A stretch of 62,728 bases of DNA from Clostridia bacterium (GTDB lineage Bacteria; Bacillota; Clostridia; Oscillospirales; CAG-272). The DNA lies in assembly GCA_017461745.1 (NCBI GenBank), contig JAFTXE010000125.1, positions 1 to 62,728 on the forward strand. The letters are read 5' to 3'. Within the stretch, counting starts at the first letter, position 1, and each line of letters begins with the position of its first letter. A program made the position numbers and the translations under genes. Shown piece by piece: positions 13,510-60,088 of the stretch. The notes below the pieces were generated by a model. It saw only the letters and a list, made by a program, of their open reading frames with translations. It searched no databases and had not been told where the DNA came from.

Positions 13510-14949
13510 TCACATTGTCATTTCCATTGATTCTTTTTGCTGAACCTGTGCTTCAAGCTCTATCGCTCCGTCAAGGCGCAGACACATCATTGCAAACTTC
13601 TGCATACTGTGGCATTGACTTTCGATTTCAACACGGGTAAAGGTATCCTTATCCGTAAACGACCTTTCGAGATTTGAAAAGTATTCCTTTAGATCGAGCA
13701 TCTGATTGACTGAATTCTTTGTATCTTTATGAGGCATATACCCCTTGAATATCTCCTTTATGACCTCTGCGGAGCTTGTTTCTTTCTCAATCTGCGAGCT
13801 TCTGCATACACAAAAAGCAATAGCAATTTTCGACATATTGAAGAGATGCTGTTGTTTTTCCGAATTTGAAACTGATTTATCCGCTTTATCAAGTAAATAG
13901 TCAAGTCTTTTAATTGTTTTGCCTATAATATAGCCTTTGCTTTCAAAAATACCCTTGCAGTTTTCATCACAATATAAGTCAATAGTCTGAAGTCCTCGGC
14001 AACGCATTTTTATATGCTCCATACGGGGATGCTCGGATGCGGGAATTGCTTCCTTTCCGTTCAAAGCTTTCAGGTCCTCATCCCAATCCTTATATGTGGG
14101 CATAGCTCTCCACAGAGAGTAATCTCCCACGCTTCTGATGTTTTCTGCTACACGGTAGGCTCCCTCAATACCCGCCCTGTCGTGATCGAGACAGAGGTAA
14201 ACGTTTTTTATATTCGGATAGCTTTTAAGCATACGTATTGCGGCAATATCTGCGGTAGAGCAAAGCGCAACGTAGGAGTGCTGTTCCCAATCCTTTTTGT
14301 GAAGCGAAATATACGCAAGCATATCTATAGGAGCTTCAAAGACGTACAGCCTATCCGATTCGCCTACATAATTGAAACTGTAGTTAGGATCGCTGCTTTC
14401 TGCGTTGCCTTTGAAGCTTGAATTTGAGGCTGTGGATCGCTTCTGTATATGCTTTGGAACACCGTTTTCGTCAAGCCCCACGAATACGGCGTTGTGGTAT
14501 TCCGCATCCTCGAATATCAACCCCTTGTGAACAAAGGCATCCACTACCTCTCGGTCAATAAATCTTTCGTTTAACAGGTACGCATATACACGGCGCATAT
14601 CCGCATTTTTAGGCGGTACTTCAAAAGGCTTCTTGGGCTTCTCATTTTCCCGTGGCTCTCTCGGCGCTCTTTCAATGACAGCTCCCGCGCCTCTGCCAAG
14701 CAATGCTTGAACGGCTTCGGGATAGCTCATACCAAAGAATTTTTGCACGAAGCTGACAGCCCCGCCGCCTATAAGCTCATATTGGCTGAACCATTCACAG
14801 CCTTTGATGGATACCTTGCCGGTCGGAGCTTCCCACCAATATTCGTTGCCGTGTTTTTCTACAGATTCGCCAACTGTACGCAAATATGATACGATATTTG
14901 CTTCATTTGCGCCTTTCTTTTCCTGTTCGCTAAAATGAATATATGGCAT
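13510..14949 (-). CDS. DUF3991 + Toprim domain protein (primase-like)
   Basis: YLLNERFID, NAVFVG, VFEAPID, LCLDHDRAG, KDWDEDL. Confidence 0.8.
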   Translation of the reverse strand: MPYIHFSEQEKKGANEANIVSYLRTVGESVEKHGNEYWWEAPTGKVSIKGCEWFSQYELIGGGAVSFVQKFFGMSYPEAVQALLGRGAGAVIERAPREPRENEKPKKPFEVPPKNADMRRVYAYLLNERFIDREVVDAFVHKGLIFEDAEYHNAVFVGLDENGVPKHIQKRSTASNSSFKGNAESSDPNYSFNYVGESDRLYVFEAPIDMLAYISLHKKDWEQHSYVALCSTADIAAIRMLKSYPNIKNVYLCLDHDRAGIEGAYRVAENIRSVGDYSLWRAMPTYKDWDEDLKALNGKEAIPASEHPRMEHIKMRCRGLQTIDLYCDENCKGIFESKGYIIGKTIKRLDYLLDKADKSVSNSEKQQHLFNMSKIAIAFCVCRSSQIEKETSSAEVIKEIFKGYMPHKDTKNSVNQMLDLKEYFSNLERSFTDKDTFTRVEIESQCHSMQKFAMMCLRLDGAIELEAQVQQKESMEMTM

Positions 14950-14973
14950 ATTTTTTCCTTTCTGTGATTTTTA

Positions 14974-16380
14974 TTATGTGTAAGTCATTTCCGCATTCTT
15001 CTTGTCCTCGATCTCCCGACGCTGACGCTTATCGATGAAGCTCTTGCCGTTATCATCATTGTCGATTTTATCCCTAAAAATATTGGCAAGGCTGCGGAAT
15101 AGACTTGTGACTGCAACGGCGCTCGGAGGCTTGCGCTGTTGGCTGTAATATTGCTTTCCGTTATGCGTATAGGAATGACTGCTCCCGCCGCCTTTACTGC
15201 CGCCTTTATCTTCACTTTTTTTCTGTTCTTCCTTTTGAGAGCTTATAGAGAAGCTCCCGCCGTTCTCACCGTGTATTCGCATAGCTTCACGGATTATCTC
15301 GTTCTTAATGCTCTTGAATTCCTTATTCTGCGATAGCGGGATCTTCGGTGGCAAGTCGCTTGTATAGGTCTTCAGTATCTCATATTTTTTATCATACCAA
15401 AGGTCGTAAAGCACGGCAATACGAGTATCCTTCGCAAGCTCATCGACTATGGAATCTATAAGCTCCTTAACGTCCTTTTGGAGATATCCGTAAACCTTCT
15501 TCGATTTGGTGGCTTTCAGTCTCTCGGACAGAAGCATCAGCTTTTGCTCTATGACGGGGTTATCATACGTTCCGTTATCTATGCGTTCCATGATGTCATC
15601 AAGCATAGCTTTCCAGTCATTTTTCAATGCGTCACGGCGCTGTGTTTGCTCACGGTAGATGTGCTGTAGGTCATCCTTGAATATGTCCTGACCGAGAGCC
15701 GAGCGCATCTTCCTCACACCTTCACGGGAGAGATATCCTCTTTGCGCGTTGGTAGAGTACGCTATGAGGTGTATGTGAGGATGGTGACTCTCATTATGAA
15801 ACGCCGCATACCATTTAAGCTCCGACATTGGTATCTTCAAGGCATCGGACAGCTCTTGCGTATGCTTACGGAGAGTATCTCTCCATTGGTATGCGTTATT
15901 GTATCCGAGACGCTCAGCATCCTCACGGCGCAAGGATACTATCATCGTCCAAAAATTTCCTGTGTGAGCATTAAGTTCCGCGGATACCTTCGAGAGAATT
16001 ATATCCTCGTCATCGGCAGAAAACAGACCGTGAGAGCCGTGCTTTTCGACTCTCGGACGGGTAGCGATATAATCGGCATAGGTTGTATTTTCCAACACAT
16101 TTTGCGCGTTATCTTCAAGAGCACGAGCTATAAACTCAGAAGCGTTCTTGGCGGTCGGTTTTGCTACATAATCCTCGTATTCGAGCATCTGAACGCTGTC
16201 GGGAAAGCGTTCCAAGATATCTTTTATTATTTCCGTCTGCTTTTTGGTGACAGAAACATTCTCCTTGACTTCATATAACTTTTCAACACCTTCCCGTGTG
16301 GCAATATACTTAACAAGCCCGCCTATATTTTTCTTTGAGGCGGGCTTGTAATATTTGAATTTTGTAACTAACTTTGCCAT
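14974..16380 (-). CDS. MobP3-family relaxase
   Basis: YIATREGVE and YIATRPRVE catalytic-Tyr motifs, HGLFS, SLRREDA, HUH motif AFHNESHHPHIH. Confidence 0.88.
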   Translation of the reverse strand: MAKLVTKFKYYKPASKKNIGGLVKYIATREGVEKLYEVKENVSVTKKQTEIIKDILERFPDSVQMLEYEDYVAKPTAKNASEFIARALEDNAQNVLENTTYADYIATRPRVEKHGSHGLFSADDEDIILSKVSAELNAHTGNFWTMIVSLRREDAERLGYNNAYQWRDTLRKHTQELSDALKIPMSELKWYAAFHNESHHPHIHLIAYSTNAQRGYLSREGVRKMRSALGQDIFKDDLQHIYREQTQRRDALKNDWKAMLDDIMERIDNGTYDNPVIEQKLMLLSERLKATKSKKVYGYLQKDVKELIDSIVDELAKDTRIAVLYDLWYDKKYEILKTYTSDLPPKIPLSQNKEFKSIKNEIIREAMRIHGENGGSFSISSQKEEQKKSEDKGGSKGGGSSHSYTHNGKQYYSQQRKPPSAVAVTSLFRSLANIFRDKIDNDDNGKSFIDKRQRREIEDKKNAEMTYT

Positions 16381-18638: not shown

Positions 18639-19736
18639 CTACATACCGCCCATGATCATTCCCGAATCCTCGGATTGCTGACGCTCAAAATTAAGCTCAA
18701 CACCCGCATCCTGGACGGCATCCAAAATGCGTTCCTGAATATCCTTAACGATATCAAAGCTGACAACAGCCTCACCGTCTTCCTTGATCATATGGATACC
18801 AAGATGTTCGCAATATTTTTCAACGAGATCCCAGCAGTCGTATTCGAGGCTATCGAAATAAGTCATCGATGAGCAGTCAATAGGTTCTTCGGGGAGAAGA
18901 ATTTCGCACTCGTCACCGAGATTTACGATTCGTCCTTGCTCTCGAAGCTCGTCAATAATTTCTTCATCGGTAAGCTTTCTAAAGGAGTCTTCGCCGGGGA
19001 CAAGAGCAAGAGTGCGTCCGTTATCCCACCTCATGTGTATCTGCCCCATATCATCAACGTAATCGACCGTACCTCTCGTTCCCGACGGTACGGGAGCAAA
19101 TGGATCGTTCATGACATTTAGCTCAATTCTTGTACCTTTAGGGTACATTTCTTTTTCTGACACAGATTGGCTCATATTCGCATATTCCTGCTCCATCTTA
19201 AAGAAGTATTCCTCGCCGTCAAACTCAACGTATTCAAATTCCGGACGAGTCTGCATGACGTTCAAAAAAACATTTTCATTGAACAGTGAGTCCCCGAATT
19301 CGGAACGGATATCATCGACAAGTAAACGGTAAATTCCGTCCTGATTGTTTGTCTTTGCCTGTTGAACATATTTGTCCACAGTGCGTTCCATATAGGTATT
19401 GAATTCATCAAGCTCGGGATACTGTATAAGTCTGTATATCTCTCTTGCGTAGGGGATATGCGCGGAATATGTGGCAAATGCCTGTCCTGCCGAATAAACG
19501 ATGATACCGTCCTCGCCGTTCTTATTCAGTACAAGAAGACAGTGCTTGATATTTGAGCTGTCGGTGTACATAGCGTTTGCGTTATCCGCAATAAAGTCAT
19601 AGTCAAGCAATAGATTTTTCTTGAAATGCTCGTATTGTCCGACGGGAAGCTCCACAGCCTTTTCCACGGTGCAATAATAGGTATTATGTTCCTCTTTTTT
19701 ATTTTGAAGCGGAACGTTTATGATGCTTGATACCAT
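18639..19736 (-). CDS. ICE protein with DUF6329-like and DUF4314 domains
   Basis: YPKGTRIEL..MNDP...GTRGTVDYVDDMGQIHMRWDNG is the DUF4314 signature. Confidence 0.7.
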   Translation of the reverse strand: MVSSIINVPLQNKKEEHNTYYCTVEKAVELPVGQYEHFKKNLLLDYDFIADNANAMYTDSSNIKHCLLVLNKNGEDGIIVYSAGQAFATYSAHIPYAREIYRLIQYPELDEFNTYMERTVDKYVQQAKTNNQDGIYRLLVDDIRSEFGDSLFNENVFLNVMQTRPEFEYVEFDGEEYFFKMEQEYANMSQSVSEKEMYPKGTRIELNVMNDPFAPVPSGTRGTVDYVDDMGQIHMRWDNGRTLALVPGEDSFRKLTDEEIIDELREQGRIVNLGDECEILLPEEPIDCSSMTYFDSLEYDCWDLVEKYCEHLGIHMIKEDGEAVVSFDIVKDIQERILDAVQDAGVELNFERQQSEDSGMIMGGM

Positions 19737-19738
19737 AA

Positions 19739-22700
19739 TCACATACTCATCGACATATCGAAGCCGTGGGAATAAGAGTTATCCTCGGATTCATCGTCAT
19801 CAAAATCCTCTGACTCCGTCTCGTCATCCTCGTAAAACTCTCCGTCCTCTATGTCATCATCGGTAATTTCTTCATCATCGGATTCCATATCCTCGTAGGC
19901 TTCTTATAGCGATAGGTAATCCTTTGAAGTTATCTTCAGATTTTCCCCCGCTCCACACCGTACGTGACCCTTTCGAGTCATACGGCGTTCCATCAATGAT
20001 ACCATTCCATTAGATTAATGCAAATTTACACATTTCGAGAAAACAAAGCAAATATTATTTTATTTCTGGCAGTTCTGCGCTTTTGCGCAGTTTATTCAGC
20101 TTTCGAAGCATTTTATCATTCAAATTTAGAATATCAAGATAGTAGGCGATAGTTTCGCTTTTACTTGCGTGTATAAGTTTATGAACATCGCAGTGTACAA
20201 TAATAAGGTTAGAGTATTTATCTGTTCCACCCTTAGATTTTGGAATAATGTGATGACAGTGTAGTTCGTCATAATCCAGTACATTCCCCGTAATCGCACA
20301 CTTACCCCATTGAGCCGCATATAATGAGATACGATTGTCGGAAAATTCGATATTTTCGCTCATCTCACTTTTTCTCATCAGCTCCCATAGAATATTCATA
20401 TTAATCTGTAAATTCTTATGGATTTCCTTGCGCCCCTCGGGAGTATATTTGCATATTTCCTTACGCTTATACATTGGGTGTTTTGTACGAATATATCCTA
20501 TCGGACACAGTGGTCGCTCATCTACAAATCGTAGTTGTTTTGAACCACCGTATCTGTCCTTGATATATCCTTTACCTAAATCACCCTTTTTCTTGATACG
20601 ACATTCTAACCTATGATTAAGCTGTGGTAAAACAGCTTTAGCAATACGGTTGCAATCTTGGCTGATATGGGTGGCGTATTGATAATAGTTATGAATACCC
20701 CATACTTTACAATTGTAATAGTAAACCCCGAGCCTCCCTTTCTTAGTGTTGGCTGGAGCTTCCATAAGTTGGATTTGCTCCAACAGCTTTGATGTTTCCC
20801 GTATTAACGCTTTATCCGACATATGAGAACGAACCACATAGGAATTTCCTTTCTTAACAGCCTTCATTTTGAAGCCGAGATAATCAGAGTAATTCCTTTT
20901 AAGATTAATAATTTTGGACTTGTCCTCGCTAATTTCCAGTTTAAGCCTCTCATTGAGCCACCGCTTAACGGCAATAAATACTTTCTTTGCATCTTCATAA
21001 CTACGGCAAAAGATTTTAAAATCGTCAGCGTATCTGATGATATACATTTCTTTTAAATTCGAAGTTGCCAAAGCACGTATTACTGGGCTTCTATCGGTAG
21101 TTCCGTTCTTCATAGTTCTTGTTTGGTAGTTGTGTTCAGTTGGAATAGTCTCCCATTGACTCGCAATCCACCAATCAAGCTCATTGAGGACGATGTTCCC
21201 GAATAGCGGAGAACATAAACCTCCTTGTGGCGTTCCTTTGGTAGGATAAACCTTGTTTCCACTCGGAAGTATTATCGGAGCTTTTAACATAGCTGTTATC
21301 ATGCTCAGTACCTTTTTGTCTCGGATACCAAGCGCCCACATCTGCTGTCTTAACTTTGTATGGTTCACATTGTCGAAAAAGCCTTTTATATCAACATCAA
21401 CAACATAATACAGGTGTTGCTTCTGTATCATTCGATAGCATTGCGCAAGTGCATTTTCAGCCGAACGATTTGGTCTGAAGCCATTGCTTCTTTCAAAGAA
21501 TTTTGCTTCACAAATCGGCTCTAAAACTTGCAAAATACACTGTTGCACAACTCTATCCCAAATGGACGGTATACCCAGCGGACGAGTTTTTCCGTCGTGC
21601 TTGGGTATTTCCACTCTTTTCACAGGCTTAGGTTGATAAAATGCCATTTTCCGTTTAGCAAGCTCGACAAACTTATCTTTCGGAATTGTTTCCAAGTCCT
21701 TGATTGTTTTCTTATCTACGCCTGCCGTGTTGCTGCCTTTGTTTCTTTTTATATTACGATATGCCAAAAGTATATTTTCCTCAGATATTATGAGGTCATA
21801 CAGTTTTGTGAAAACCTTGCCGTTTTTGCTCTCGGCGTATAACCTATCGAAAGTATCTGTAAGGTCATAATACTCTGCATGCCGTAATTTCTTTTGTTTT
21901 GGTGTTTTCTTCGAAATCAACTCAGTCAACGCCCCCTTTCAGGATTGTTTTTCTTTGTCATACTCGAAGCTGAATTTATTTGCATTTCATATTTGTTAAT
22001 ATCATTTGACTCGTGGCTGTTCCTCCACTCTCATTACAAGAGCTTCATCGGTCGTGCCACTACTTTCACTGTAATTAAAGACGCTTATTATTCTTCGTCG
22101 TCACCGTGCGTAAAGCACGTTATACAGCTTCCTACGTTCCGATAATCCTATCTGTACATATATCCTTAGGTGCCTACTATAAGCCAGTCAGCTTGAAAGT
22201 GCCTATAACACTTTAAGGTATTTCATAGTGACGAATTTTACTTTACCTCACTGACCCCACATTGTGGGACTACACATTTCTGTGCATTAATGCTCTTGAC
22301 TCCTTTTGTCGTAGGTTCGTCGGTACAGCCTTTTGTACATACTCACCATAGATATTTTATAGACCCCCGACATATAGGTTGCGCACTCCGCCTCCGGAGC
22401 GTTTTCGTGAATGAAATATCATTCTTACGGCAACTCTCTGCCGACTTCACCGAGCTTCTGAACATCTGCCTTTTGAGCAGAGCCAGTCGGAGAATTAGGG
22501 AAGCGTTTCAGGGCGTTACCCCCTCATTCCACTATTCGGATTATCAGTTCTCCAAGTACATATTTTTAAGAACTCCTTTCAATTTCTCTAAATTTGTGCT
22601 TGTGCCTAACCTTTTCAGTTAGGAACGTATCGCACCATCGCTCATTTCTTCCTCAGTGGCGGTAATGTCCTCGGACATATCCTCATCTTCCTCGGCCTCA

Positions 22701-23041
22701 GCCATTTCTTTTTCGGCTTTCTGCTTATCCTGCATCGCCTGATCTTCTTCCAAGACCTTAGTAATAAAGTCAAGGAAAAACTTGTTTTTCTTGAGTCCGT
22801 GGCGGTGGAGATAATCATTGAGCTTCTCAAAGATCTCGTCCGATGTCTGGAATGCGATAGTTCTTGTTTTTTCCATAGTAATTTCCTCTTTCTCATTAAA
22901 TTTGGGGTGTAGCGCGTCCTGAAGGGCGCGTTCAATAAAGTCTGACATTGTCATCTCATGGCTTTCCGCATAGGCTTTGACCTCGTCGTACAATTCCTCG
23001 AGTATCTTTGCGGATATGCCTTTTCTTTTACCTGTCGGCAT
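19739..23041 (-). CDS. Intron-split gene: tandem ribbon-helix-helix-like protein with a long acidic tail (exon 1 23041..22636, exon 2 19905..19739)
   Basis: Removing the intron joins GAT G|AA GAA GCC in frame, giving ...EMSDEEAYEDMESDDEE...NSYSHGFDMSMSM*. Confidence 0.85.
19906..22635 (-). mobile_element. Group II intron (probably bacterial class B)
   Basis: 5' GTGCG at 22635; domain V GAACGCCGTATGACTCGAAAGGGTCACGTACGGTGT; 3' end ACCTATCGCTAT at 19906; excision restores the host reading frame. Confidence 0.92.
20055..21929 (-). CDS. ltrA: Group II intron reverse transcriptase/maturase with HNH endonuclease
   Basis: RPLGIP, GFRPNRS, GTPQGG, RYADD; C-terminal CAITG..HCHHIIP..GG...NL...H. Confidence 0.95.
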   Translation of the reverse strand: MTELISKKTPKQKKLRHAEYYDLTDTFDRLYAESKNGKVFTKLYDLIISEENILLAYRNIKRNKGSNTAGVDKKTIKDLETIPKDKFVELAKRKMAFYQPKPVKRVEIPKHDGKTRPLGIPSIWDRVVQQCILQVLEPICEAKFFERSNGFRPNRSAENALAQCYRMIQKQHLYYVVDVDIKGFFDNVNHTKLRQQMWALGIRDKKVLSMITAMLKAPIILPSGNKVYPTKGTPQGGLCSPLFGNIVLNELDWWIASQWETIPTEHNYQTRTMKNGTTDRSPVIRALATSNLKEMYIIRYADDFKIFCRSYEDAKKVFIAVKRWLNERLKLEISEDKSKIINLKRNYSDYLGFKMKAVKKGNSYVVRSHMSDKALIRETSKLLEQIQLMEAPANTKKGRLGVYYYNCKVWGIHNYYQYATHISQDCNRIAKAVLPQLNHRLECRIKKKGDLGKGYIKDRYGGSKQLRFVDERPLCPIGYIRTKHPMYKRKEICKYTPEGRKEIHKNLQINMNILWELMRKSEMSENIEFSDNRISLYAAQWGKCAITGNVLDYDELHCHHIIPKSKGGTDKYSNLIIVHCDVHKLIHASKSETIAYYLDILNLNDKMLRKLNKLRKSAELPEIK

Positions 23042-23215: not shown

Positions 23216-23932
23216 CTACATACTTTGTACTCTTATTTCCGAAAAGGTGTCCTCATCGTTATAATTCGGACAGTATGACGTAAAAAACATAAGGTCGAAG
23301 TCTTCATCAACTTCAAGGTCGGACACGATCTCCGAAAAATTGTGCAGATGGTCTTTTATCTTATTCAGCATATCCGTGTCCGAGGGCAGAGAGATACCAA
23401 AGCGTTCGTTGATCTCGGAGAACGGTATATGGATATTTCCGCTCATCGTATCCGCTGTGCCTTCGTCAATGATATACTCGGCTATGGTCTGCGCATAACT
23501 ATCTCTGTCAAAATAGCGGGCAAGCGATGTAAATCCCATTTCACGTATCTCATTATCGGTCATTCCTATAACCTCAGAAAGCGTAACGTAGAAGGCTTCT
23601 TCCGGTTCTGTTTCGTTCATCCAAGCCAAGGTTCTGCCAAGAAGGTCATATATACGATTGCTTTTAACATCGTTCTTTTCGGCAACAAGATCTTCGTACC
23701 AACCGTCCATGTATCCTATAATAGCGTCGTTGAGCGATCTTTCGGTAAGGTCGGGAATATCATATTTTTCCGCAAGGCAGAAATCGTCAAGCTGATTGGC
23801 ATAGCTGTCATCACCTGCGGGATATATCTGACAATAATATCCGTTACAGATATCGTCCTCACCCGTATTGTAATTGTGTCGAATGATACCTCGGTCTATT
23901 GTACTCGTTATCTCAAATCCCCTGTATCTCAT
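23216..23932 (-). CDS. Acidic hypothetical ICE protein
   Basis: ORF in the operon; start at MRYRGF after AAAGGA. Confidence 0.65.
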   Translation of the reverse strand: MRYRGFEITSTIDRGIIRHNYNTGEDDICNGYYCQIYPAGDDSYANQLDDFCLAEKYDIPDLTERSLNDAIIGYMDGWYEDLVAEKNDVKSNRIYDLLGRTLAWMNETEPEEAFYVTLSEVIGMTDNEIREMGFTSLARYFDRDSYAQTIAEYIIDEGTADTMSGNIHIPFSEINERFGISLPSDTDMLNKIKDHLHNFSEIVSDLEVDEDFDLMFFTSYCPNYNDEDTFSEIRVQSM

Positions 23933-24362
23933 AGCTAAATCCTTTCTCTTGATTCTCCGAGGGCTTTTCGTTATAAACATTTACTTTTGACCAAGTCAGA
24001 TAATCCTTAATATCCTCGAGCGTTCCTTCGGCTTCCATTTTGGGTATGTCATTTATGTCCCCGCCGTTTGCAAGATGCTCGGCAGCACCTTTTATCTCCC
24101 AAGGGAACGGACAGGCAGGGATTCCCGCAAGCATAATAATTTGCTTTGCTATTTCTTCTCCGTGTTCCTTACGGACTGTATCAATAGCGTAAGCTATCTC
24201 ACCGAGAAATGTTTCAGAGCTTTTAAATTCATAGGGATCGGTTTCCTTATCGGGATTGTCCATATCCTGCAATTCCTTTGCCCATTCATGCCATATATCC
24301 AGGACACCTTCCGAATTTGGAAATATGGACGTAATGAATATTGAAAAGTCATTAAAAGTCAT
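23913..24362 (-). CDS. Hypothetical ICE protein
   Basis: ORF in the operon with an RBS. Confidence 0.6.
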   Translation of the reverse strand: MTFNDFSIFITSIFPNSEGVLDIWHEWAKELQDMDNPDKETDPYEFKSSETFLGEIAYAIDTVRKEHGEEIAKQIIMLAGIPACPFPWEIKGAAEHLANGGDINDIPKMEAEGTLEDIKDYLTWSKVNVYNEKPSENQEKGFSYEIQGI

Positions 24363-30474: not shown

Positions 30475-30505
30475 GGTATCATCTCCTTTTCGTCTTATTT
30501 TATCC

Positions 30506-47907: not shown

Positions 47908-47943
47908 GTTATGTTTCCTTTCTGTTTGTGTTATTTGTTTTGA

Positions 47944-48232: not shown

Positions 48233-48646
48233 TTACATTTTTTGTACGGGGATTTCTTCGTTTTGGGCGGTATTGGTTTGTACGCTTTGAGCCTGTTCGA
48301 GTGCTTGGTCATACTTTTCCAATACCGCCTTGCCGAGTGCTGTGCGTTCCTCGGATGTGGTGGGGTGGAACGTGTCGTGATAGGTTTTGTTACCTTCTGC
48401 GTCCTTTGTGGTGTACTGCGGCATCTTTATCCATCTGCTGCCGTCTTTTTCGTAAACAGCAATACCGTGGACTGCGTATTCGTCAATGTTAATGCTTGCG
48501 AACGCTTTAAGGGGACGGTTAGGATCATTCAAGAGACTGTCGATGCGTACGGATAACTTGTGCTTTGACACGTAAGGCTCTTTCTGTTCCTGCTCCGCTT
48601 TTTCCTTGGGAGACGCCATAGCAGCACCGCCTTTCTTTCCAGCCAT
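48233..48646 (-). CDS. SpoVG-family nucleic-acid-binding protein
   Basis: LKAFASINID..AVHGI.V......WIKMP......Y.D.FHP.T.E.R. Confidence 0.75.
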   Translation of the reverse strand: MAGKKGGAAMASPKEKAEQEQKEPYVSKHKLSVRIDSLLNDPNRPLKAFASINIDEYAVHGIAVYEKDGSRWIKMPQYTTKDAEGNKTYHDTFHPTTSEERTALGKAVLEKYDQALEQAQSVQTNTAQNEEIPVQKM

Positions 48647-48731: not shown

Positions 48732-49616
48732 TTACATTGCGATAAAAGTAAAACCGCAATCGTCTTGTACTTCATCTTGACTTATGTCTTCGGGCTGTTC
48801 AAATCTTCTTGAGTATTCCGTGACCTGCTCATCGGTAAGATCGCATAAATTACCGTGGTCATCGTCGTTTACGATAAACATCGGCCCTGCGTATATCGAG
48901 TTTCCGATTCGACGGTTTCCTTCCATGCCAATGAGCTTTGCTTCCTCATTGCTGACGACAACGGCGCTGTCATCAAAGGGATACGTTATCTCCATGAGCG
49001 ACGGCTCTCCGTTACGGCTGACAGCTCTTTGCCACATTTTATAATCGTCCACAACACGTATTTCCACGGGCTTTCGATTCGGCAGTATCATAAGAGCGCG
49101 AATACCGTCCATGTCCTCACACAGTGAGGAGTCAAAGTCTATCTTTTGCCAACCTGTTATCGAGTCGCAAAAGAAAAAGCCTTCCTCGGCAAGTCTTATG
49201 TGCTGACCGGCAAGGTTTTCGTACTGTATCGGAGTATTCTCGTCTTGGCATTCCCGCAGCATATCGTAGAAGTCATCGGAATCGGTATAATAAACCGTAT
49301 CGCCTACCTTTGCCACGTGATCCTCGCCCGCATACAGAAAATCTATCTTCCCGTACACCTCGGGAATATCGTCGATAACCTCGACCACGTCGGATACAGA
49401 CAGCGAATGTCCTTGATACGTTCCGATATAGTCCTCTCGAAATCCATTGAAAATGTTAAACACATTATCAAGGTGCATAGCCTTCACATCGCCGTGATAT
49501 ACGCATTTGTAAGCTGCGGGATCGATGCCGCCATGCTTCATAGTAAACTCATGGCTCATGAACTTTACGCCGTTCTTATCCTTTTCGCCGTCAAGCTGAT
49601 ATATCTTTATTCGCAT
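48732..49616 (-). CDS. YodL-like + DUF3846 domain protein
   Basis: IYQL...GHSLSVSDVV; NEEAKLIGMEGNR..AGPM...DLTDEQ. Confidence 0.7.
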   Translation of the reverse strand: MRIKIYQLDGEKDKNGVKFMSHEFTMKHGGIDPAAYKCVYHGDVKAMHLDNVFNIFNGFREDYIGTYQGHSLSVSDVVEVIDDIPEVYGKIDFLYAGEDHVAKVGDTVYYTDSDDFYDMLRECQDENTPIQYENLAGQHIRLAEEGFFFCDSITGWQKIDFDSSLCEDMDGIRALMILPNRKPVEIRVVDDYKMWQRAVSRNGEPSLMEITYPFDDSAVVVSNEEAKLIGMEGNRRIGNSIYAGPMFIVNDDDHGNLCDLTDEQVTEYSRRFEQPEDISQDEVQDDCGFTFIAM

Positions 49617-52588: not shown

Positions 52589-52924
52589 TTAGCACATGCT
52601 CATACCCTCATCTTCACTTGGGTATATAGTGGCGCTTTCAGTGGCATCACGACCAAGCTCCGCTAACAGCTCATTAAAGTCATCTACAGACTCACAATCA
52701 CGGATACCGAAATCGGCGCATAGCTGCTCGTATTCCGATACATCCTCGCCGTCCTCTACCAATGATCTGTTAAGTTCAAGCCAAGCCTTACCGTCTGCCC
52801 AACAAACAGAGGTCGGGAAGCCCTCGGTCTGATCGCATTGAAAGTCGGGAGAGCGATGGACATTAAAGAATCCCGCCTCACGCTCTATGTCGCTTGTTTC
52901 CTTTTTAAAGACTTCATAATTCAT
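52589..52924 (-). CDS. Acidic hypothetical ICE protein
   Basis: ATGA overlap with the upstream gene. Confidence 0.65.
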   Translation of the reverse strand: MNYEVFKKETSDIEREAGFFNVHRSPDFQCDQTEGFPTSVCWADGKAWLELNRSLVEDGEDVSEYEQLCADFGIRDCESVDDFNELLAELGRDATESATIYPSEDEGMSMC

Positions 52925-54309
52925 AGGCTCATCTCCATACCGTCAGATAAATCCGACATATCCGATTCTGCAAACTCCTTTACCGTCATAGACTCTCCGA
53001 GAAAGTTAGGGCTTGTATCCTCAGTGAAGTGTATCTCTCCGTCATCTCCCAGGTCAATAGGCTCTTTGGTTATGACGGTACCTGCATGTTCTGCGTAAAC
53101 AAATGGCTTTAACGCGCAGATATAACCGTCCTCGTCGTATTGAAGATCGTATTTATAATGACCTTCGGGTACTTCTTCGGTTTTTATTCGCTGTATCAGA
53201 AACAATCCCTTTTTATCGCATACCTCAATGACATCGTATTCAAACGTATCGTGCATGAGATCAGCGGGAGTGAATTCTATGTTGAAAATTGAGCCGCCCT
53301 CGGTAGATATAAGTCCGTATTCCGTAGCTCTTGCGCAGGTTCTGTCCATAAGGGCATTACCAAGAGCACACAGATTGGCTGTTTCAAGCAGTTTTCTGTC
53401 AAAATTCTCAGGTAAGTATTTCAAAAGATATTCCTTTGCAAATGCCTCTGGCGTGGGAGCATGATAGCAAAATTCATACTTATCCATGTTGTACATAAGC
53501 AACATACATGCTCTCACATTATCGGGATGCTCTGCTTCAAGCGCCGCCTTAAAAGCTATTTGCTCTCCCGCATTCATCTCCGTCCATTTGGCTTCAATTC
53601 TTTCCAAAAATACCGCATGCTTTGGATTCGTTATCTTTATTGAATCCAAATACGGAATAGGGGATATGACCGTATTGTCCTTGGATATTTCAAAGGTGGC
53701 ATGGTCCGGCATCAGCTCGTCGGGAAGTGTTACGCCATCATAAATGAGTTTACTTGGGAAATCTCCTAAAGCAAAATATGAGTCTCTATAGAAAAATCCG
53801 TTGTCATTCACTCGCTGTATAGCTCCTATGATTTTTTTATCAAGCAATTCAAGAGCTTCATCGGGGAGCTTTAGCACTGTGTCATTCATACCCGTCTCAA
53901 TTACAAGCGCTCCGAGCTGTTCGTCATTGCCTATGTTTTGAGCTATACTTATGCTATCCAGCTCATAAGTCATATTTATGAGATTCTTTACCGAAACATA
54001 TTCGGGTTCGTCAGCCATTTTTCTTGCAACTACCGCGCGGAACACACGAAGTTCTTCGCTATTCAATACAGACAGGCGCTTGGCTAAAGCATTGTATTCT
54101 GTAAGCGTTCCTTCCGTATTTATATCTGCGAGCATTGGGACAGTAGTGCAAGATATGATATCTGCCGACGGTTCTTCGCCAAACACGCATCGGAGCTTGT
54201 GCTTTGCGTCGGTTATTTCCGCATCCGTTGCGGGGAGTAACAGGTCTGCATAATAGCCTTCGCCTTTGACCGAGTGATACAATTCCAAAGATAAGGTTTT
54301 GGGTGACAT
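52921..54309 (-). CDS. ArdA-like repeat protein with C-terminal LPD28-like domain
   Basis: L.LPAT..EI, EYNALAKRL; C-terminal YKYDL...HAGTVITKEPI. Confidence 0.55.
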   Translation of the reverse strand: MSPKTLSLELYHSVKGEGYYADLLLPATDAEITDAKHKLRCVFGEEPSADIISCTTVPMLADINTEGTLTEYNALAKRLSVLNSEELRVFRAVVARKMADEPEYVSVKNLINMTYELDSISIAQNIGNDEQLGALVIETGMNDTVLKLPDEALELLDKKIIGAIQRVNDNGFFYRDSYFALGDFPSKLIYDGVTLPDELMPDHATFEISKDNTVISPIPYLDSIKITNPKHAVFLERIEAKWTEMNAGEQIAFKAALEAEHPDNVRACMLLMYNMDKYEFCYHAPTPEAFAKEYLLKYLPENFDRKLLETANLCALGNALMDRTCARATEYGLISTEGGSIFNIEFTPADLMHDTFEYDVIEVCDKKGLFLIQRIKTEEVPEGHYKYDLQYDEDGYICALKPFVYAEHAGTVITKEPIDLGDDGEIHFTEDTSPNFLGESMTVKEFAESDMSDLSDGMEMSL

Positions 54310-54319
54310 TTTCTCTCCT

Positions 54320-55336
54320 TTACATATCCATAGTTAAGCCTTGCGGTTCTTCTATGTTATTTTCACTTTCGCTTTGCACAGGTGGTTCATATTCATAAAG
54401 GATACGTCTGCCGTACGTTACTTCACGGATGTCCTCTACGGTGTAGTCAGCGCCATTACCGAACAGCTTCTCAAACTCACGTCTGTCGGGAGCCGCCATA
54501 TAATAAGCGCTATAATAGGTGCGAAGACCTTTCAAATGCTCGGCTGATGTTTTAAATCTGAATTCTTCGCCGCATTTATTGATGGTTACCGTAACGGTTT
54601 TTGCTTTCGATACGTTTATTGCATCGGTAAGCTGCTTCATTTTATGATAGGGATGCTCTGTGTTCTCCATAAGCTCCTTGAAGGTTTGGCGAAGAACCTC
54701 ATTTTTCTTCAGCTCGTAAATTATCCTCTGTTTTCGGTCGCCGATGTAACAGACTACCTCTTTTTGAAGGTAGGCAGCTCTGTCACGAACATATTCAAGC
54801 AATGATTCCTCATTCCATTGTTCAGACTCATATTCGCACTCGTATATGATATCCTCATCGGTCTGACCTTTAAAATAGGCCATAGCCGAAAGCTCCATAG
54901 CGTTTCGCTCTCTGATACGGCTGAGTTGGTTTCTGTAATAAAGATCTGTCAGTTCCTCACTCATAAGCTTATCTGATATAGGGCGTATCACGTTTTCTAC
55001 CGACTCCTGAAACTGCGAAACATATTGGTCGTGCAATACACCTGTGCTTCTTGCGTTATCGTACTCCCAATCCTCAACAAGATCGGATATCCGTCTGTCC
55101 TCACAGTACATAAGTCCTTCGGGAATGTAGTACATACCGCAGAAATCAAAGACATCACCGCGTATAACGCTGTTTCCGTGGTATGCGCTCTGCGCGAACA
55201 CATAAACAAAATCTTTGTCTTTTGGAAACCTCACAAAGGCGTGGTTATATCCGTTCCTTTGGCACGAAAGCGGAGCCGTACCGCCGTTCTTCAGCCATTC
55301 GTGGAAATCCTTATTGCTTATCTTTTTGCTATCCAT
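54320..55336 (-). CDS. Hypothetical ICE protein
   Basis: 338-aa ORF in the operon. Confidence 0.65.
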   Translation of the reverse strand: MDSKKISNKDFHEWLKNGGTAPLSCQRNGYNHAFVRFPKDKDFVYVFAQSAYHGNSVIRGDVFDFCGMYYIPEGLMYCEDRRISDLVEDWEYDNARSTGVLHDQYVSQFQESVENVIRPISDKLMSEELTDLYYRNQLSRIRERNAMELSAMAYFKGQTDEDIIYECEYESEQWNEESLLEYVRDRAAYLQKEVVCYIGDRKQRIIYELKKNEVLRQTFKELMENTEHPYHKMKQLTDAINVSKAKTVTVTINKCGEEFRFKTSAEHLKGLRTYYSAYYMAAPDRREFEKLFGNGADYTVEDIREVTYGRRILYEYEPPVQSESENNIEEPQGLTMDM

Positions 55337-56491: not shown

Positions 56492-57664
56492 TCATAGCTC
56501 CATCTCTCCCATTGTTTGCGTTGATTGTACCGAAGTCAGCATTTCTTTTATTTTATCGGGGCAATCGTCCATATCCGTATGGATATCTCCGTCGTACCGT
56601 ACCGTGTACCAATACTTATACGGGAACGCTTCCTTCATATACTGCTGTGCCTTGTGGTTGTTATTTTCACTGCTGTCGTATATGCCGTAGGGAGTGAAAA
56701 ATTGAGCATCCCACAGCTCTCCCGATGATGATACGTCAATGGTGAGCAACGCAAGATATATTTTGTCATTCGCACCGAGAACGACGGCGGGGACGGTGAC
56801 AAAGTCCATGTCCTCATATACGCTGTCGCTTTCATATGCGGATACGAACTCATTATGGAGAGACCTCAGAACCTCGGTCATATACTGCATATCCTGCGTT
56901 TCATAGGCTTTTCCAAGAGCTGACAAGCTCAATGACGGGACGACGTTGCGGTTTATTCCGTTGATAAACTCCGCTTGCATAACGTCATATTTTTCGTCGT
57001 ACAGTTCCTCGGCGGTCAAAATCTTGAAGTCATCCTTATCGGGATCAACGGGCAGTATCCGTCCGTCATCCCACTTGACGACCACGTACCCTATGCTATC
57101 CACCCTCAATACGCTTCCGCGTATCCCTTGGGGTAGGGCATAAGCCGTGGACTTTACGTCTTGCGCTTCGACTCGCATATTATAAAAATATTGCTGTTTC
57201 CGCTTTTCCGCATTTTCTTTCCAAGGTGTTTCGCTGCCCATGAGGACGTCTCCAACCGACAATATTTCGTAGCTTGTAAACCGAAGATCTCCGCGGTAGC
57301 CTATTTTGCTGTTTGAGAATTCCTCGGCTTGGGCTTTCATCTCGGCGCTTGACTTGGGCGATACCACCTGCATCCACCTTACCCATCTGTCCTGACGGGA
57401 GCGGGGGACAAGGCGGAGTACCACGTAATCGTCTGCTTCAAAGCGAGGATACTTTTTTGCCGTCTGATCCTTGTCGATATAATACTTTCCTTCTTGCAGA
57501 ACGGTATATTCCATATAGGTCTTCAGATTTTTCAGCGTGTCGCAGAACCAACACTCCGTATCCCCGAAGCGTTTTATTGCTTTCGCCTTTATAATAGCGT
57601 CGAGATTCTTCTTCGGTGTTAAATGATACACCGCCGACGGTGCTTTTGCATTTACGTATCCCAT
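56492..57664 (-). CDS. Multidomain ICE protein with central DUF4314-like segment
   Basis: GIRGSVLRVDSIG.V.VKWDDG; N-terminal VYHLT motif. Confidence 0.6.
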   Translation of the reverse strand: MGYVNAKAPSAVYHLTPKKNLDAIIKAKAIKRFGDTECWFCDTLKNLKTYMEYTVLQEGKYYIDKDQTAKKYPRFEADDYVVLRLVPRSRQDRWVRWMQVVSPKSSAEMKAQAEEFSNSKIGYRGDLRFTSYEILSVGDVLMGSETPWKENAEKRKQQYFYNMRVEAQDVKSTAYALPQGIRGSVLRVDSIGYVVVKWDDGRILPVDPDKDDFKILTAEELYDEKYDVMQAEFINGINRNVVPSLSLSALGKAYETQDMQYMTEVLRSLHNEFVSAYESDSVYEDMDFVTVPAVVLGANDKIYLALLTIDVSSSGELWDAQFFTPYGIYDSSENNNHKAQQYMKEAFPYKYWYTVRYDGDIHTDMDDCPDKIKEMLTSVQSTQTMGEMEL

Positions 57665-58083
57665 TACATACCTCCCATTGATTGACCGCCGATGTCCATA
57701 TACATATCTTCATCAGCGAACATTTCTATATAGCCTTCGACTGCCGACTGTATTTTTTCATAGTCACTGTCTGTGGGCTTATATCTGTACCAATCGATCT
57801 TATTGATACTGCATTGCCAGATGTGCGGGGCAACCTCGTTCTTGATGCCCAGGAGTTCTACAAAATTGAACCTCTGCTCATCTATAACACCGTCGCGGCG
57901 GTTTATAATTTTAACCATCAGCGCGTCGTAATTGTCGGCAACGCTTGTTGTCGTGAAATAGATTTTTGCCCGTATATCCTTTCCTATCTTGCTTATCAGC
58001 ATTTTGCCCGATGACACGGTATCGGCAGAGAGGACTTCCGAATCTCCGAATATTGTCATAAGCTCTTTTTCAAAGAATGTCAT
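57664..58083 (-). CDS. Hypothetical ICE protein
   Basis: GAGG RBS; operonic. Confidence 0.65.
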   Translation of the reverse strand: MTFFEKELMTIFGDSEVLSADTVSSGKMLISKIGKDIRAKIYFTTTSVADNYDALMVKIINRRDGVIDEQRFNFVELLGIKNEVAPHIWQCSINKIDWYRYKPTDSDYEKIQSAVEGYIEMFADEDMYMDIGGQSMGGM

Positions 58084-58092: not shown

Positions 58093-58443
58093 TCACATTT
58101 GAATAAAATCCTGCCCGAAAAGTTCTTCGGGACAGTGTGTAAACTTAAAGTCACTTGAGGATATTTTCTTACAGCGTTCAAGGAACGTGGGATCATCGCT
58201 ATGTCGGATCGTAAAGTATGCTATCTCCGTAGGTGTGGCGACATTCAAAAAGCCTTCGCCGTAAAGATAGGAGTCTGTATGAACGCATACCTCGGTTTCC
58301 TCGCAGATATCCTCGATAAATTGATTGTACATTACGTAGTTTTCAAGGTCAGTGGATTCCTTGGGGATTCCGCAAGCAAAAAAGCGGACGGTACAGTCGT
58401 TGACCTTTACGGTCACGTGCGAAAAAAGAAGGGACATACTCAC
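58093..58443 (-). CDS. Hypothetical ICE protein
   Basis: Operonic ORF. Confidence 0.55.
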   Translation of the reverse strand: MSMSLLFSHVTVKVNDCTVRFFACGIPKESTDLENYVMYNQFIEDICEETEVCVHTDSYLYGEGFLNVATPTEIAYFTIRHSDDPTFLERCKKISSSDFKFTHCPEELFGQDFIQM

Positions 58444-58943
58444 ATACCTCCCATTCCCATATCCGGACCGAGCCTGTCGCTGAATTCATCTTCATTGTCT
58501 ATGAAGTAATCATCACCGCTGTGCCAGAAGCTGACGTACATTTCTCCGTCGGATATTTCTATTGCGCGTTGCTCAAAGCCCTCGCCAAGACCGTCTGAAT
58601 TTTGTCCGCTTACCCAGTCCTTGAATGTTTCTTCTTCCTCATCGGTAAAGTAGTCCGTAAGCGTCGCTGTGATGCATCCGTACAGCGTACCGTCAACGGA
58701 CTCGACATCCCATTTGACCTCTTTCAGCTTATGGATATTCTTGTGGTCGGCATTAAAATATTCAGCCATATCCAAGTCGTCGCAATATTCGGTCAGGCGT
58801 TCACGAATCTCATATTCATAGCTGTCGGCAAATCTTCCGTCAAGCTCGTATGAGTCCGACTCATCAATATCTCCGTATTCGTTTTCTTCATAAACGAGAA
58901 CCTTTAATGGGCAGTAGTATTTCATTTCAACTGTGTTGCTCAT
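58440..58943 (-). CDS. Highly acidic mobile-element protein
   Basis: DWVSGQNSDGLGEGFEQR motif. Confidence 0.65.
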   Translation of the reverse strand: MSNTVEMKYYCPLKVLVYEENEYGDIDESDSYELDGRFADSYEYEIRERLTEYCDDLDMAEYFNADHKNIHKLKEVKWDVESVDGTLYGCITATLTDYFTDEEEETFKDWVSGQNSDGLGEGFEQRAIEISDGEMYVSFWHSGDDYFIDNEDEFSDRLGPDMGMGGM

Positions 58944-60088
58944 AAGCTCATCTCTCCCATTCCTTGTTCGTTGCAGTCAAGTATATCCGATAGCCTCATA
59001 TCGCAGTCAAGTCCGACAAATCCATAATTATCTACGTATTCGCCGTTCTTGTCTCTGTATACGTCCTTACCGTATTCCTCAAAATCGATATAATCCTGAA
59101 GCTCGGGAGAGTAGGTGTACTCATCGACCTTGTCTATCCAATATTCTCCAAGCTCGTAATCGTCGTACACGTCTTTGGCAAATACGAATACATCAAGGCT
59201 TTGCGCTATAACTATGACCGAGTCGGCATCATTAACGTCTGCATAGCATATAGCGGCGGCAAGATTTCTCGGATCGTCGCAGTTATCTATTTCCTTCGCT
59301 ACGAGATTGGCTTTGTATAAGCCTTCGTTTTCGATGATATCGTGAAGCAGATTTGATAAGGTTTCCTCACTCAAGTCGGTTATTTCCATGCGGACAGAGC
59401 ATTCGTCTATGCTACTGCATCCCAATCTTTTTATCGCCTTTGTGATTGCTCTGTATTCTTCGGGAAGGTACAGACACTCTGTCTGCTCACCGTGTTCGAG
59501 ATATATGGTCGCAATACAAGGGCGGTATTGGTATTCGGGAAAGGCAGTACTGTTATACACGGTTTCATACGGAATGTCCTCGTTTATAAAAACAAGACCG
59601 AACTCTGAAGCAAGACCTTTTCCGCTGCATATAAGCTCCTTGCCGACCTCTGCCATTCGGGGAGATTTTGTCTCGTCTGCAGTCAAAAGCTCTCCCTTGT
59701 TCAGCAGATGGGTAACTCCGACCTTTTGCAGATTTGTCATGTCACGGATAAGGGTGTACCTTTGAAGATTGAAGGTAAGGTTTACAAGGTCACGGGGTGT
59801 CAGATGATCCTCGAAGCGAGAGGCTGCGAGAAACTGATAATACTCTTGTCCCGAGAAGCTGTCCATTCGCTTGGCAAGATAGTTTATCTCATCGAGGTCT
59901 ACGGATTTGCCCTCAAAGAAATCCTTTAGCTCGACAGGCTCCAGAACCTTCTCAACTAAAAAAGGATCACCTTCGTGATCCGTGGCGTGAAGCTCAGCGA
60001 GCTTGGCATATAGAGGACTTTCTTCAATAGGGAACTCGATGTCGATACAGGTATCGTTGTGCTTGATTCTTAATACTATTTCTGTCAT
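58940..60088 (-). CDS. ArdA-like anti-restriction candidate
   Basis: Acidic; DEINYLAKRM repeat unit; C-terminal ELGEY...YIDFEEYGKD...GFV resembling ArdA. Confidence 0.6.
   Translation of the reverse strand: MTEIVLRIKHNDTCIDIEFPIEESPLYAKLAELHATDHEGDPFLVEKVLEPVELKDFFEGKSVDLDEINYLAKRMDSFSGQEYYQFLAASRFEDHLTPRDLVNLTFNLQRYTLIRDMTNLQKVGVTHLLNKGELLTADETKSPRMAEVGKELICSGKGLASEFGLVFINEDIPYETVYNSTAFPEYQYRPCIATIYLEHGEQTECLYLPEEYRAITKAIKRLGCSSIDECSVRMEITDLSEETLSNLLHDIIENEGLYKANLVAKEIDNCDDPRNLAAAICYADVNDADSVIVIAQSLDVFVFAKDVYDDYELGEYWIDKVDEYTYSPELQDYIDFEEYGKDVYRDKNGEYVDNYGFVGLDCDMRLSDILDCNEQGMGEMSL

Follow-up and report, generated by a model that had tools for sequence, protein, structure and literature searches.

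About twenty otherwise unrelated soluble proteins of a conjugative element from gut Clostridia share a C-terminal tail, first acidic and then rich in methionine. The element was studied in a stretch of 62,728 nucleotides, hereafter the window. It is found strictly at the C-terminus, belongs specifically to this family of elements and has persisted through deep divergence. Judged from its sequence and distribution, it may well be a docking or translocation tag, probably read by the coupling protein, that would load its carriers for delivery to the recipient. Our search found no published description of an acidic-linker/Met tail.

The initial annotation had listed 16 clear and five weaker tails, and each was found at its stop coordinate on the minus strand. 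One of them, at 19739, had been described as spliced; a group II intron does split this RHH gene, and the tail lies at the end of the downstream exon. The carriers and the intron are as follows.

58940..60088, minus strand: ArdA-domain protein, 382 aa (Pfam ArdA PF07275, E 9e-8), first gene of the tail-rich operon; tail ..NEQGMGEMSL
58440..58943, minus strand: acidic protein, 167 aa, without Pfam match; tail ..GPDMGMGGM, its GG codons (GGA GGT) forming the next gene's ribosome-binding site
58093..58443, minus strand: 116-aa protein; weak tail ..GQDFIQM (G002 orthologue, ..SPVMSM)
57664..58083, minus strand: 139-aa protein; tail ..GGQSMGGM, with GGA GGT as the next gene's ribosome-binding site
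56492..57664, minus strand: DUF4314 protein, 390 aa; tail ..TMGEMEL
54320..55336, minus strand: 338-aa protein; tail ..PQGLTMDM
52921..54309, minus strand: LPD28-domain protein, 462 aa (Pfam PF18843, E 1.5e-25); tail ..SDGMEMSL
52589..52924, minus strand: 111-aa protein; tail ..EDEGMSMC, then non-coding DNA (G004 orthologue, ..EDSGMNMQ)
48732..49616, minus strand: YodL + DUF3846 protein, 294 aa; weak tail ..GFTFIAM (relatives, ..FMIYPM and ..FKIIGFNM)
48233..48646, minus strand: SpoVG-like protein, 137 aa; weak tail ..EEIPVQKM (orthologues, ..VQVQKM, ..PIMQKM and ..AFGQSM)
31404..32093, minus strand: 229-aa protein; tail ..NEPTLDM
29284..30534, minus strand: HipA_C-domain protein, 416 aa (Pfam PF07804, E 5e-10); tail ..SEDSGMTML, then non-coding DNA (G005 orthologue, ..ENYGMKFDM)
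26936..27385, minus strand: DUF4313 protein, 149 aa; tail ..DNDADIGMSM
26518..26925, minus strand: 135-aa protein; tail ..IDGLDMTM
25338..25991, minus strand: 217-aa protein; tail ..EDTEPSMSM
24377..25330, minus strand: 317-aa protein; tail ..NNEPTLEM (orthologues, ..NGIITM, ..GAMIM, ..DVGIVM and ..ALTMKM)
23216..23980, minus strand: 254-aa protein; weak tail ..SEIRVQSM (orthologue, ..ENISLNM)
22619..23041, minus strand: first exon of the RHH gene, with the RHH domain
About 19889-22620: group II intron in the RHH gene (Rfam RF02004 at 22356-22552, RF00029 at 19906-19990), with an RT/HNH ORF at 20055-21929
19739..19888, minus strand: downstream exon of the RHH gene, highly acidic; tail ..HGFDMSMSM (in G002 an orthologue of 235 aa, not interrupted, ..EGFGLSM)
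18639..19742, minus strand: DUF4314/DUF6329 protein, 367 aa; tail ..EDSGMIMGGM, with GGC GGT, which is not a ribosome-binding site
14974..16380, minus strand: MobL relaxase, 468 aa (Pfam MobL PF18555, 109 bits); basic helix, then ..NAEMTYT
13510..14949, minus strand: DUF3991 + Toprim primase-like protein, 479 aa; tail ..KESMEMTM (orthologues, ..PLAMTM, ..KITIGGI and ..TAINM)

The carriers, each encoded by its own ORF, measure 111-479 aa and contain one or two domains. None has a predicted membrane segment, and all have net charges between -7 and -46, except the weakly tailed SpoVG-like protein (-1). Solo domains of the polyvalent-protein type (ArdA, YodL, LPD28, Toprim) are among them, as are the primase-like protein and, weakly, the relaxase. 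That the carriers are mutually unrelated was largely borne out: with the last 12 residues removed, BLASTP at E <= 1e-3 linked only three pairs among 20 carriers (18639/56492, 23216/31404 and 24377/25338). The tail was absent from proteins with membrane segments, ATPases, Tad proteins and both methylases. Tail-less genes named in the initial annotation proved to be so for the Tad genes and the following six.

11670..13508, minus strand: VirD4-type coupling protein, 612 aa (Pfam PF02534, PF12696)
27382..29211, minus strand: VirB4-like ATPase, 609 aa
32106-33032: TrbL/VirB6
51620-52495: Dam methylase
55348-56463: Dcm methylase
10216-11193: integrase

Enrichment at C-termini was measured on greedy non-overlapping ORFs of at least 80 aa on both strands, spurious ORFs included. 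The last residue was Met in 14/65 window ORFs vs 28/2087 in the rest of the genome (p = 3e-12), and at least two Met among the last six residues occurred in 13/65 vs 14/2087 (Fisher p = 7e-14). These window counts are an undercount because the ORF set omits two true carriers, the gene at 26518-26925 and the exon at 19739. The comparison with the host and with related elements revealed a strongly enriched tail specific to the element and its relatives. Its description as Met-rich stood only in part: the tail is real and enriched, but among relatives its residues are hydrophobic without always being Met (M > L > I, sometimes F).

Related elements were located using the VirB4-like ATPase as an anchor. 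In five of them, fetched whole, 31/186 ORFs inside the element ended in Met, vs 1/133 flanking ORFs. A tail matrix was then applied, trained on 16 window tails and with its threshold at the host 99.5th percentile. In 80 distant metagenome loci, where identity of the ArdA-like gene is just 34-41%, it matched 207/511 downstream ORFs on the same strand, compared with 3/347 upstream and 3/179 opposite-strand ORFs, and 11/2087 host ORFs. Hundreds of carrier relatives share the tail, which is widespread in human-gut and rumen metagenomes. One orphan carrier (G000:C78:9253-9507) sits away from any T4SS.

For the ArdA-domain protein, 103 of the 120 homologues listed end in a Met-rich or phi-x-phi-GG-phi tail. 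The relaxase end is kept in orthologues as ..NAELTIT, ..NAELTMT, ..GQNLTM or ..GMKLEL, and a phi-T-phi-x end related to the tail was present in 9/9 relaxase orthologues examined. Aligned DUF4313 sequences all keep the last Met, behind a linker that varies in length and sequence; the AF2 model of the window protein has a confident domain fold, with residues 139-149 below pLDDT 50. DUF4313 homologues with the same domain fell into several tail classes: 30 had phi-x-[MIL] at the end, 11 had one extra residue, 21 were KMDEMQGW-like, 24 had KMPPxE without the acidic linker, and 34 had other ends. We saw no element-specific tail 'dialects'; in a single element, ends in M, L and I occur side by side, and therefore no co-variation points to a co-evolving reader.

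The motif consists of a flexible acidic linker, almost devoid of basic residues, and then G-[M/F/I/L]-x-M-(x or GG)-[M/L/I], 0-2 residues before the end; one or two residues can trail the last Met (..MGGMQL, ..GMGMRL). Hydrophobic residues, Phe included, occupy positions -1, -3/-4 and -5/-6. D/E make up 36-62% at positions -7 to -12. Over positions -20 to -7 of non-redundant Met-ended tails of the element family, 43% of residues were D/E and 2% K/R, vs 12% and 13% in the host, and the clear-tail carriers in the window have net charges of -2 to -8 over their last 25 residues. Among 716 distinct proteins, M.MGG[MI] was found 71 times within two residues of the end and never internally; it does not occur in the host proteome. 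GM[STNDEQ]M lay within three residues of the end in 59/75 occurrences.

Met has a single codon, so its conservation cannot be separated from that of ATG by synonymous-site analysis. That selection on the tail acts at the protein level is shown instead by the substitution pattern. Position -4 of GG-type tails holds M (49), I (5) or L (4) and never Thr, Lys or Arg, though each of these is one base change from ATG, and codons at the x positions vary (ACA, ACT, AGT, TCA, AGC). There is a good chance that the tail is a portable C-terminal short linear motif that has been added to soluble proteins of more than 17 unrelated families in one large family of gut-Clostridia conjugative elements.

As an address tag, the tail would be bound by a single reader encoded on the element. 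The likeliest reader is the VirD4-type coupling protein, which would stand where substrates enter the type IV secretion channel. It would pick up the anti-restriction and establishment proteins along with the primase-like protein and the relaxase, all to be delivered to the recipient together with the DNA. It is the only T4CP in the genome, with one N-terminal membrane segment and a C-terminus that is basic and variable in the alignment. The element would then carry the equivalent of a 'polyvalent protein' broken up into about 20 separately tagged pieces. The relaxase, the one certain T4SS substrate, speaks for such a tag by its related C-terminal end. Points against it are that the relaxase tail is a weak match and follows a basic rather than an acidic segment, that both methylases would be useful in the recipient, yet lack the tail, and that the orphan carrier has no T4SS near it. 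More tentatively, Gram-positive conjugation systems may use family-specific C-terminal 'zip codes'. The tail would then be the code by which, in this family, the coupling protein sends the primase-like protein, the relaxase and some 20 separately encoded proteins for anti-defence and establishment into the recipient.

Tight translational coupling could in principle produce such tails at the DNA level, as a by-product of ribosome-binding sites and ATG-rich junctions and with no peptide function. Met having one codon only is in keeping with this, and so are the distinct GG[MI] tails, 59/64 of which spell a ribosome-binding-site core (GGAGG-type) with their GG codons and 62/64 of which are accompanied by a start codon between -8 and +25 nt relative to the stop. 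M-x-M tails without GG behaved differently: none of 29 had a ribosome-binding-site core in the last five codons, and 12/29 had no start within 25 nt. Four window tails (29284, 52589, 48233 and 48732) adjoin non-coding DNA downstream, and host genes ended in Met about as rarely with a start codon close downstream (14/871) as without one (14/1216). Coupling also leaves the acidic, basic-free linker unaccounted for, and tail substitutions are confined to hydrophobic residues. As an explanation of the tail it is very improbable; it is refuted for the M-x-M core and the linker and holds only for the GG pair, the restriction that the initial annotation had anticipated. The GG pair would be the next gene's ribosome-binding site (GGAGG) placed at a position that the motif tolerates, not a protein signal.

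The remaining alternatives grant the tail a function other than export. Of these, the least improbable, though still unlikely, is that the tail serves as a shared docking peptide whose hub is not the secretion channel; it would gather the accessory proteins into one complex in the donor or the recipient. Candidate hubs are the relaxosome, the primase complex or a host protein at incoming single-stranded DNA. The architecture is that of known hub-binding tails (acidic linker, hydrophobic tip, free end), and one and the same element accepts M, L or I at the end, as expected of a shallow hydrophobic pocket. The class II PDZ-type pattern phi-x-phi-COOH fits many tails (MSM, MTM, LEM, LDM); GG insertions and trailing residues (..MGGMQL, ..GMVLS) break this register, and no PDZ or other known C-terminus-binding family was matched at E <= 0.01 in Pfam scans of 50 element ORFs. 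Nor do the tails imitate that of the host SSB (..DDDLPF). A C-terminal degron, which would make establishment proteins short-lived and restrict them to brief action after transfer or induction, is less probable again. Proteases are known to recognise non-polar C-termini as one class of signal (ssrA, ClpXP, FtsH), and the ArdA and HipA-like proteins, being anti-restriction and toxin-like, plausibly need transience. The host ssrA tag ANDRNVALAA is unlike the M-x-M, MGGM or M-x-L ends, and the host's own SpoVG (98 aa) lacks such a tail, both of which count indirectly against the degron and the docking peptide alike. The tail is also essentially absent from host proteins (11/2087), versions of it are borne by the relaxase and the primase-like protein, and the same domain has different tail classes across lineages, which fits an element-owned reader better than a conserved host protease. 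Soft metal binding by Met-x-Met (Cu(I), Ag(I)), or a role of these residues as sacrificial antioxidants, is barely credible. MxM and MxxM 'Mets motifs' do bind Cu(I) in copper-handling proteins. The carriers, by contrast, are cytoplasmic, mutually unrelated and involved in DNA conflict, the element has no copper genes, and Ile, Leu and Phe freely substitute for Met, which is incompatible with thioether ligation. In favour of the docking peptide, the carrier domains also occur fused in polyvalent proteins, as described in the accessible part of PMC5512222, and physical co-assembly would therefore mimic the fused state.

The proposed address tag has partial counterparts in known systems. Effectors of the Legionella Dot/Icm (type IVB) system carry a Glu-rich C-terminal 'E-block', bound by DotM of the coupling complex. 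Both signals have an acidic stretch within the final 20-30 residues and a hydrophobic residue close to the end, and both sit on many unrelated proteins; recognition of the E-block is believed to take place at the coupling complex. Here, in contrast, the system is a monoderm conjugative T4SS with a MobL relaxase, and the conserved part is the hydrophobic tip (M-x-M) at the very end; general Pfam scans of 50 element ORFs listed no type IVB parts, DotM or IcmS/W. Substrates of Agrobacterium VirB/VirD4 and RSF1010 MobA have positively charged (Arg-rich) C-terminal signals. Read by VirD4, as we propose for the present tail, these portable signals form the very C-terminus of soluble proteins with a function in the recipient; the present tail has the opposite charge (net -2 to -8 over the last 25 residues). 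The SSB C-terminal tail (..DDD[IL]PF) is a hub-binding tail, acidic with a hydrophobic tip, and has the flexible acidic linker and free carboxyl end in common with the tails described here. The host SSB ends ..NTDDDLPF, whereas the present tails end in M-x-M and none in the window ends in PF. Moreover, SSB is one protein with many partners, and here many proteins would have one presumed partner.

In the F plasmid, the C-terminal tail of TraD docks on TraM and so couples substrate and channel, according to the accessible part of PMC8406263. A short C-terminal peptide is common to both cases, docking on a partner being only proposed for ours; in F the coupling protein itself bears the tail, in a single pair, and here there are some 20 carriers. 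The same part of that source describes coupling-protein-dependent cohort transfer by the pED208 F-type T4SS (ParA, ParB1, SSB, ParB2, PsiB and PsiA). Delivery of an element's own maintenance and anti-SOS proteins to the recipient would be a common trait, which for the present element we infer; the pED208 system is Gram-negative, and that part of PMC8406263 describes no peptide signal shared by the cohort. Closest in domain repertoire are the polyvalent proteins found in phages as well as conjugative elements (Iyer et al. 2017, PMC5512222): the accessible part of this paper names ArdA, YodL and LPD28, lists DNAG primase for conjugative elements and proposes a role in the recipient. There, 2-15 domains are fused in one giant polypeptide, as opposed to the separate genes with their own tails found here, and 'methionine', 'C-terminal tail' and 'secretion signal' have no occurrences in the paper.

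Whatever its function, the tail is a clean example of dual coding, with a ribosome-binding site at a permissive position of a peptide motif. We know of no defined protein-transfer signal for Gram-positive conjugation systems. A 2025 review notes, in its accessible part, limited experimental evidence on substrate recruitment in Gram-positive systems (PMC12857230). The candidate tag, which is short and sharply defined, marks proteins whose expected site of action is the recipient (ArdA, polyvalent-type domains, the primase-like protein and the relaxase), and it provides a sequence rule for listing candidate conjugative protein cargo. If the proposed function is true, a protein-translocation signal would for the first time be defined for a monoderm T4SS, and the tail by itself would suffice to predict which proteins thousands of gut conjugative elements carry as cargo.

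One complete contig of the 2.54-Mb gut-Clostridia genome makes up the window, and an integrative conjugative element spans ~10.2 kb to 60.1 kb of it. Nearly all of its genes lie on the minus strand. The main ones are:

10216-11193, tyrosine integrase
11670-13508 (-), VirD4-type coupling protein
27382-29211, VirB4-like ATPase
DUF3991/Toprim primase-like protein
MobL relaxase
TrbL/VirB6, DUF3852 pilin-like protein and large surface protein
Tad/Flp pilus module
Dam and Dcm methylases
many small acidic proteins

The Tad-like module, here within a Gram-positive conjugative element, is headed by two tandem Flp-type pilin genes of 77 aa each (47674-48177, minus strand). A related element carries a VirB3-like 205-aa ORF and the VirB4-like ATPase as one 798-aa ORF (G004:C105:79870-82266, given as genome, contig and position). 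The gene flanking the element end (60732-61517, minus strand) belongs to the Pfam family PF04072, "leucine carboxyl methyltransferase", which is odd company given the common C-terminal tail of the element's proteins. None of the five related elements has a counterpart beside it, which makes coincidence the probable explanation.

The initial annotation had proposed that about 20 element proteins end in an acidic linker and a Met-rich tip, and each of its tails, 16 clear and 5 weaker, was found where it had been placed. This observation is real and extends to a large element family. ORFs were called mechanically over the entire genome, giving 65 in the window and 2087 elsewhere. At least two Met in the last six residues occurred in 13/65 window ORFs vs 14/2087 elsewhere, and Met was the last residue in 14/65 vs 28/2087. 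By position, Met reached 21.5% at -1 in the window (1.3% outside it) and 10.8% at each of -3 and -4 (~2%). The carriers are mostly unrelated, as had been claimed, with only three similar pairs among 20. One tail had been described as spliced, correctly: a group II intron at 19889-22620 (-) interrupts the RHH gene 22619-23041, as indicated by Rfam matches at 22356-22552 and 19906-19990 and an RT/HNH ORF at 20055-21929. The second, downstream exon (19739-19888) bears the tail ..HGFDMSMSM, and an orthologue without the interruption ends ..EGFGLSM. Two further genes, 33054-33392 (-) and 33382-33780 (-), encode a DUF3852 pilin-like membrane protein (..IWDILGM; relatives ..IWNILGM) and a DUF7768 protein (..TMTHEM), both with a terminal Met and without an acidic linker.

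The tail occurs only on soluble proteins with accessory or DNA-processing roles. Membrane segments are predicted in none of the carriers. They are acidic overall, with net charges of -7 to -46; only the SpoVG-like protein, whose tail is weak, falls outside this range, at -1. Among the element's other proteins, those with membrane segments, the three ATPases, both methylases and the small DNA-binding proteins have no such tail. Carrier domains are ArdA, YodL+DUF3846, LPD28, DUF4313, DUF4314 (two proteins), HipA_C, SpoVG-like and DUF3991/Toprim; NCBIfam offered no model for the carriers, one sub-threshold DnaG match apart. The 98-aa SpoVG of the host is tailless, whereas the element's SpoVG-like protein has a tail. 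The relaxase has a related end, in its case after a basic segment, and this end is kept (..AE-[MLI]-T-x-x, ..QN[LI][ST]M, ..GMKLEL) in 9/9 orthologues examined. In Iyer et al. 2017 (PMC5512222), ArdA, YodL and LPD domains are named as parts of "polyvalent proteins", a DNAG primase domain is given for those of conjugative elements, and the proteins are proposed to act inside the newly invaded cell. The words "methionine", "C-terminal tail" and "secretion signal" do not occur in that paper.

With the VirB4-like protein as anchor, 33 related loci were collected from gut and rumen Clostridia genomes. Carrier orthologues there still finish with an acidic linker and a hydrophobic tip (such as ..NGIITM, ..GAMIM, ..NISLNM, ..ALTMKM, ..PLAMTM, ..IGMGGM, ..GMKFDM and ..IQEISL). 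When five related elements were fetched whole, 31/186 in-element ORFs vs 1/133 flanking ORFs ended in Met. The strongest test of the tail as a family trait is a scan of 80 metagenome loci, found with the alignment of ArdA-like proteins (only 34-41% identity to the window protein). The position matrix had only the 16 window tails as its training set, and hits had to exceed the host's 99.5th percentile.

Matrix matches among ORFs of the 80 metagenome loci and the host
Same-strand ORFs, ArdA-like gene onward: 207/511
Upstream ORFs: 3/347
Opposite-strand ORFs: 3/179
Host ORFs: 11/2087

The most frequent ends at these loci were MTMGGM, GPVMGM, MGGMQL, ITMGGM, MQMGGM and GFGMTM, and the two methylases in the operons never had the tail. 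It is a trait of a large element family, not a quirk of the window element, and specific to that one family of conjugative elements. In a second conjugative element from a related host (G001:C9, coupling protein 30% identical), 0/11 T4SS-module ORFs ended in Met, a weak contrast because this element has few accessory genes. One distant metagenome relative (L075) has kept the tails, and no Tad-like module was seen inside its 10-kb flank. An orphan acidic ORF of 84 aa (G000:C78:9253-9507, plus strand) with the end ..DNEDNSMGMGMTM is surrounded by metabolic genes. No T4SS is close by, and the collected sets contain no homologue; the ORF is perhaps a leftover or a hitch-hiker.

Single carrier families showed how the tail varies. 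Among 120 listed homologues of the ArdA-like carrier (33-97% identical), 103 had a Met-rich or phi-x-phi-GG-phi end (phi, hydrophobic residue), and M, I or L was last in 114. The DUF4313 family was found in only 5/399 genomes of the class. Its domain closes at a conserved ..Y-D-x-Y-M, followed by a linker variable in length and sequence and then one of several tail classes; three contigs with other classes were short (4-10 kb) and gave no information on gene context. Element-specific tail "dialects", which would have hinted at a co-evolving reader, were not found, with M, L and I ends mixed within elements.

Motif statistics were drawn from 593 non-redundant C-termini of the 80-locus operons. 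In the 171 that ended in Met, Asp/Glu made up 36-62% at positions -7 to -12, and the linker (-20 to -7) was 43% acidic and 2% basic, vs 12% and 13% in the host. GG-type tails (..MGGM-like ends) had M 49, I 5 and L 4 times at position -4, and a hydrophobic residue at -6 in 51/58. Across 716 proteins, M.MGG[MI] lay at most two residues from the end 71 times and internally 0 times; it was absent from the host proteome. A leftover inter-domain linker of a fused ancestor was rejected as the origin of the tail, since the motif was not found internally. The AF2 model of the DUF4313 carrier (mean pLDDT 85) falls below 50 at residues 139-149, which indicates a flexible appendage. The tail is under selection as a peptide that is flexible, portable and confined to the C-terminus.

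The initial annotation had cautioned that GG-containing ends could be overlapping ribosome-binding sequence. It was right, and more widely than expected: the Gly codons of GG[MI] tails are GGA GGN, spelling a GGAGG core, in 59/64 distinct cases, and a start codon lies -8 to +25 nt from the stop in 62/64, so that the GG pair is the next gene's ribosome-binding site. Such dual coding was seen at metagenome loci L069-L148 and at window positions 57664-57680 and 58440-58456, where the next gene starts 1-3 nt past the stop of the ..MGGM tail. That the entire tail is a pure by-product of translational coupling is very improbable, and beyond the GG pair a ribosome-binding-site origin was rejected. 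M-x-M tails without GG had a GGAGG-type core in 0/29 cases, and 12/29 had no start nearby; Met-ended host genes were 14/871 when closely coupled vs 14/1216 when uncoupled; and Met positions were substituted only by I, L or F, never by Thr, Lys or Arg, though each is one base change from ATG. In addition, non-coding DNA follows four window tails. Because only one codon specifies Met, synonymous-site tests cannot be applied at the Met positions.

A degron, one of the alternatives raised initially, is improbable: comparison with the host ssrA tag, on which an ssrA-like degron was rejected, and the lineage-specific tail classes both weaken it. Metal binding is a negligible prospect. Docking on a hub other than the coupling protein is unlikely, with a somewhat better chance than a degron. 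Mimicry of the SSB tail was rejected, the host SSB ending ..DDDLPF; that tail is an architectural analogue.

We would place the tail among the known C-terminal tags for docking and translocation. In function, its closest analogue is the acidic E-block signal of Legionella Dot/Icm effectors. Both share an acidic stretch and a hydrophobic residue near the end; the secretion system differs, and in the element's tail it is the tip that is conserved. Signals of the Agrobacterium type are oppositely charged. No description of the tail was found in the literature searched (main texts in a subset of journals). TraD-TraM tail docking of F is a further architectural analogue, and an F plasmid has been shown to pass on a cohort of its proteins during conjugation (PMC8406263). 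For Gram-positive substrate recruitment, a 2025 review (PMC12857230) describes the experimental evidence as limited.

A natural candidate for the reader is the VirD4-type coupling protein. T4CPs are known T4SS substrate receptors (PMC8406263), and this genome encodes no other T4CP. A complex prediction that paired its soluble part (residues 35-575; alignment of 44 rows) with the C-terminal 45 residues of the DUF4313 carrier (17 rows) scored 0.00 without controls and counts neither way. We give roughly even chances to the proposal that the tips are bound by a single reader, with this protein as candidate. The hydrophobic tip would be what is bound, and the acidic linker would serve as a flexible leash, possibly DNA-like. 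The original suggestion that the tail marks proteins for translocation is plausible, and such a reader should recognise the cargo proteins, the primase-like protein and the relaxase.
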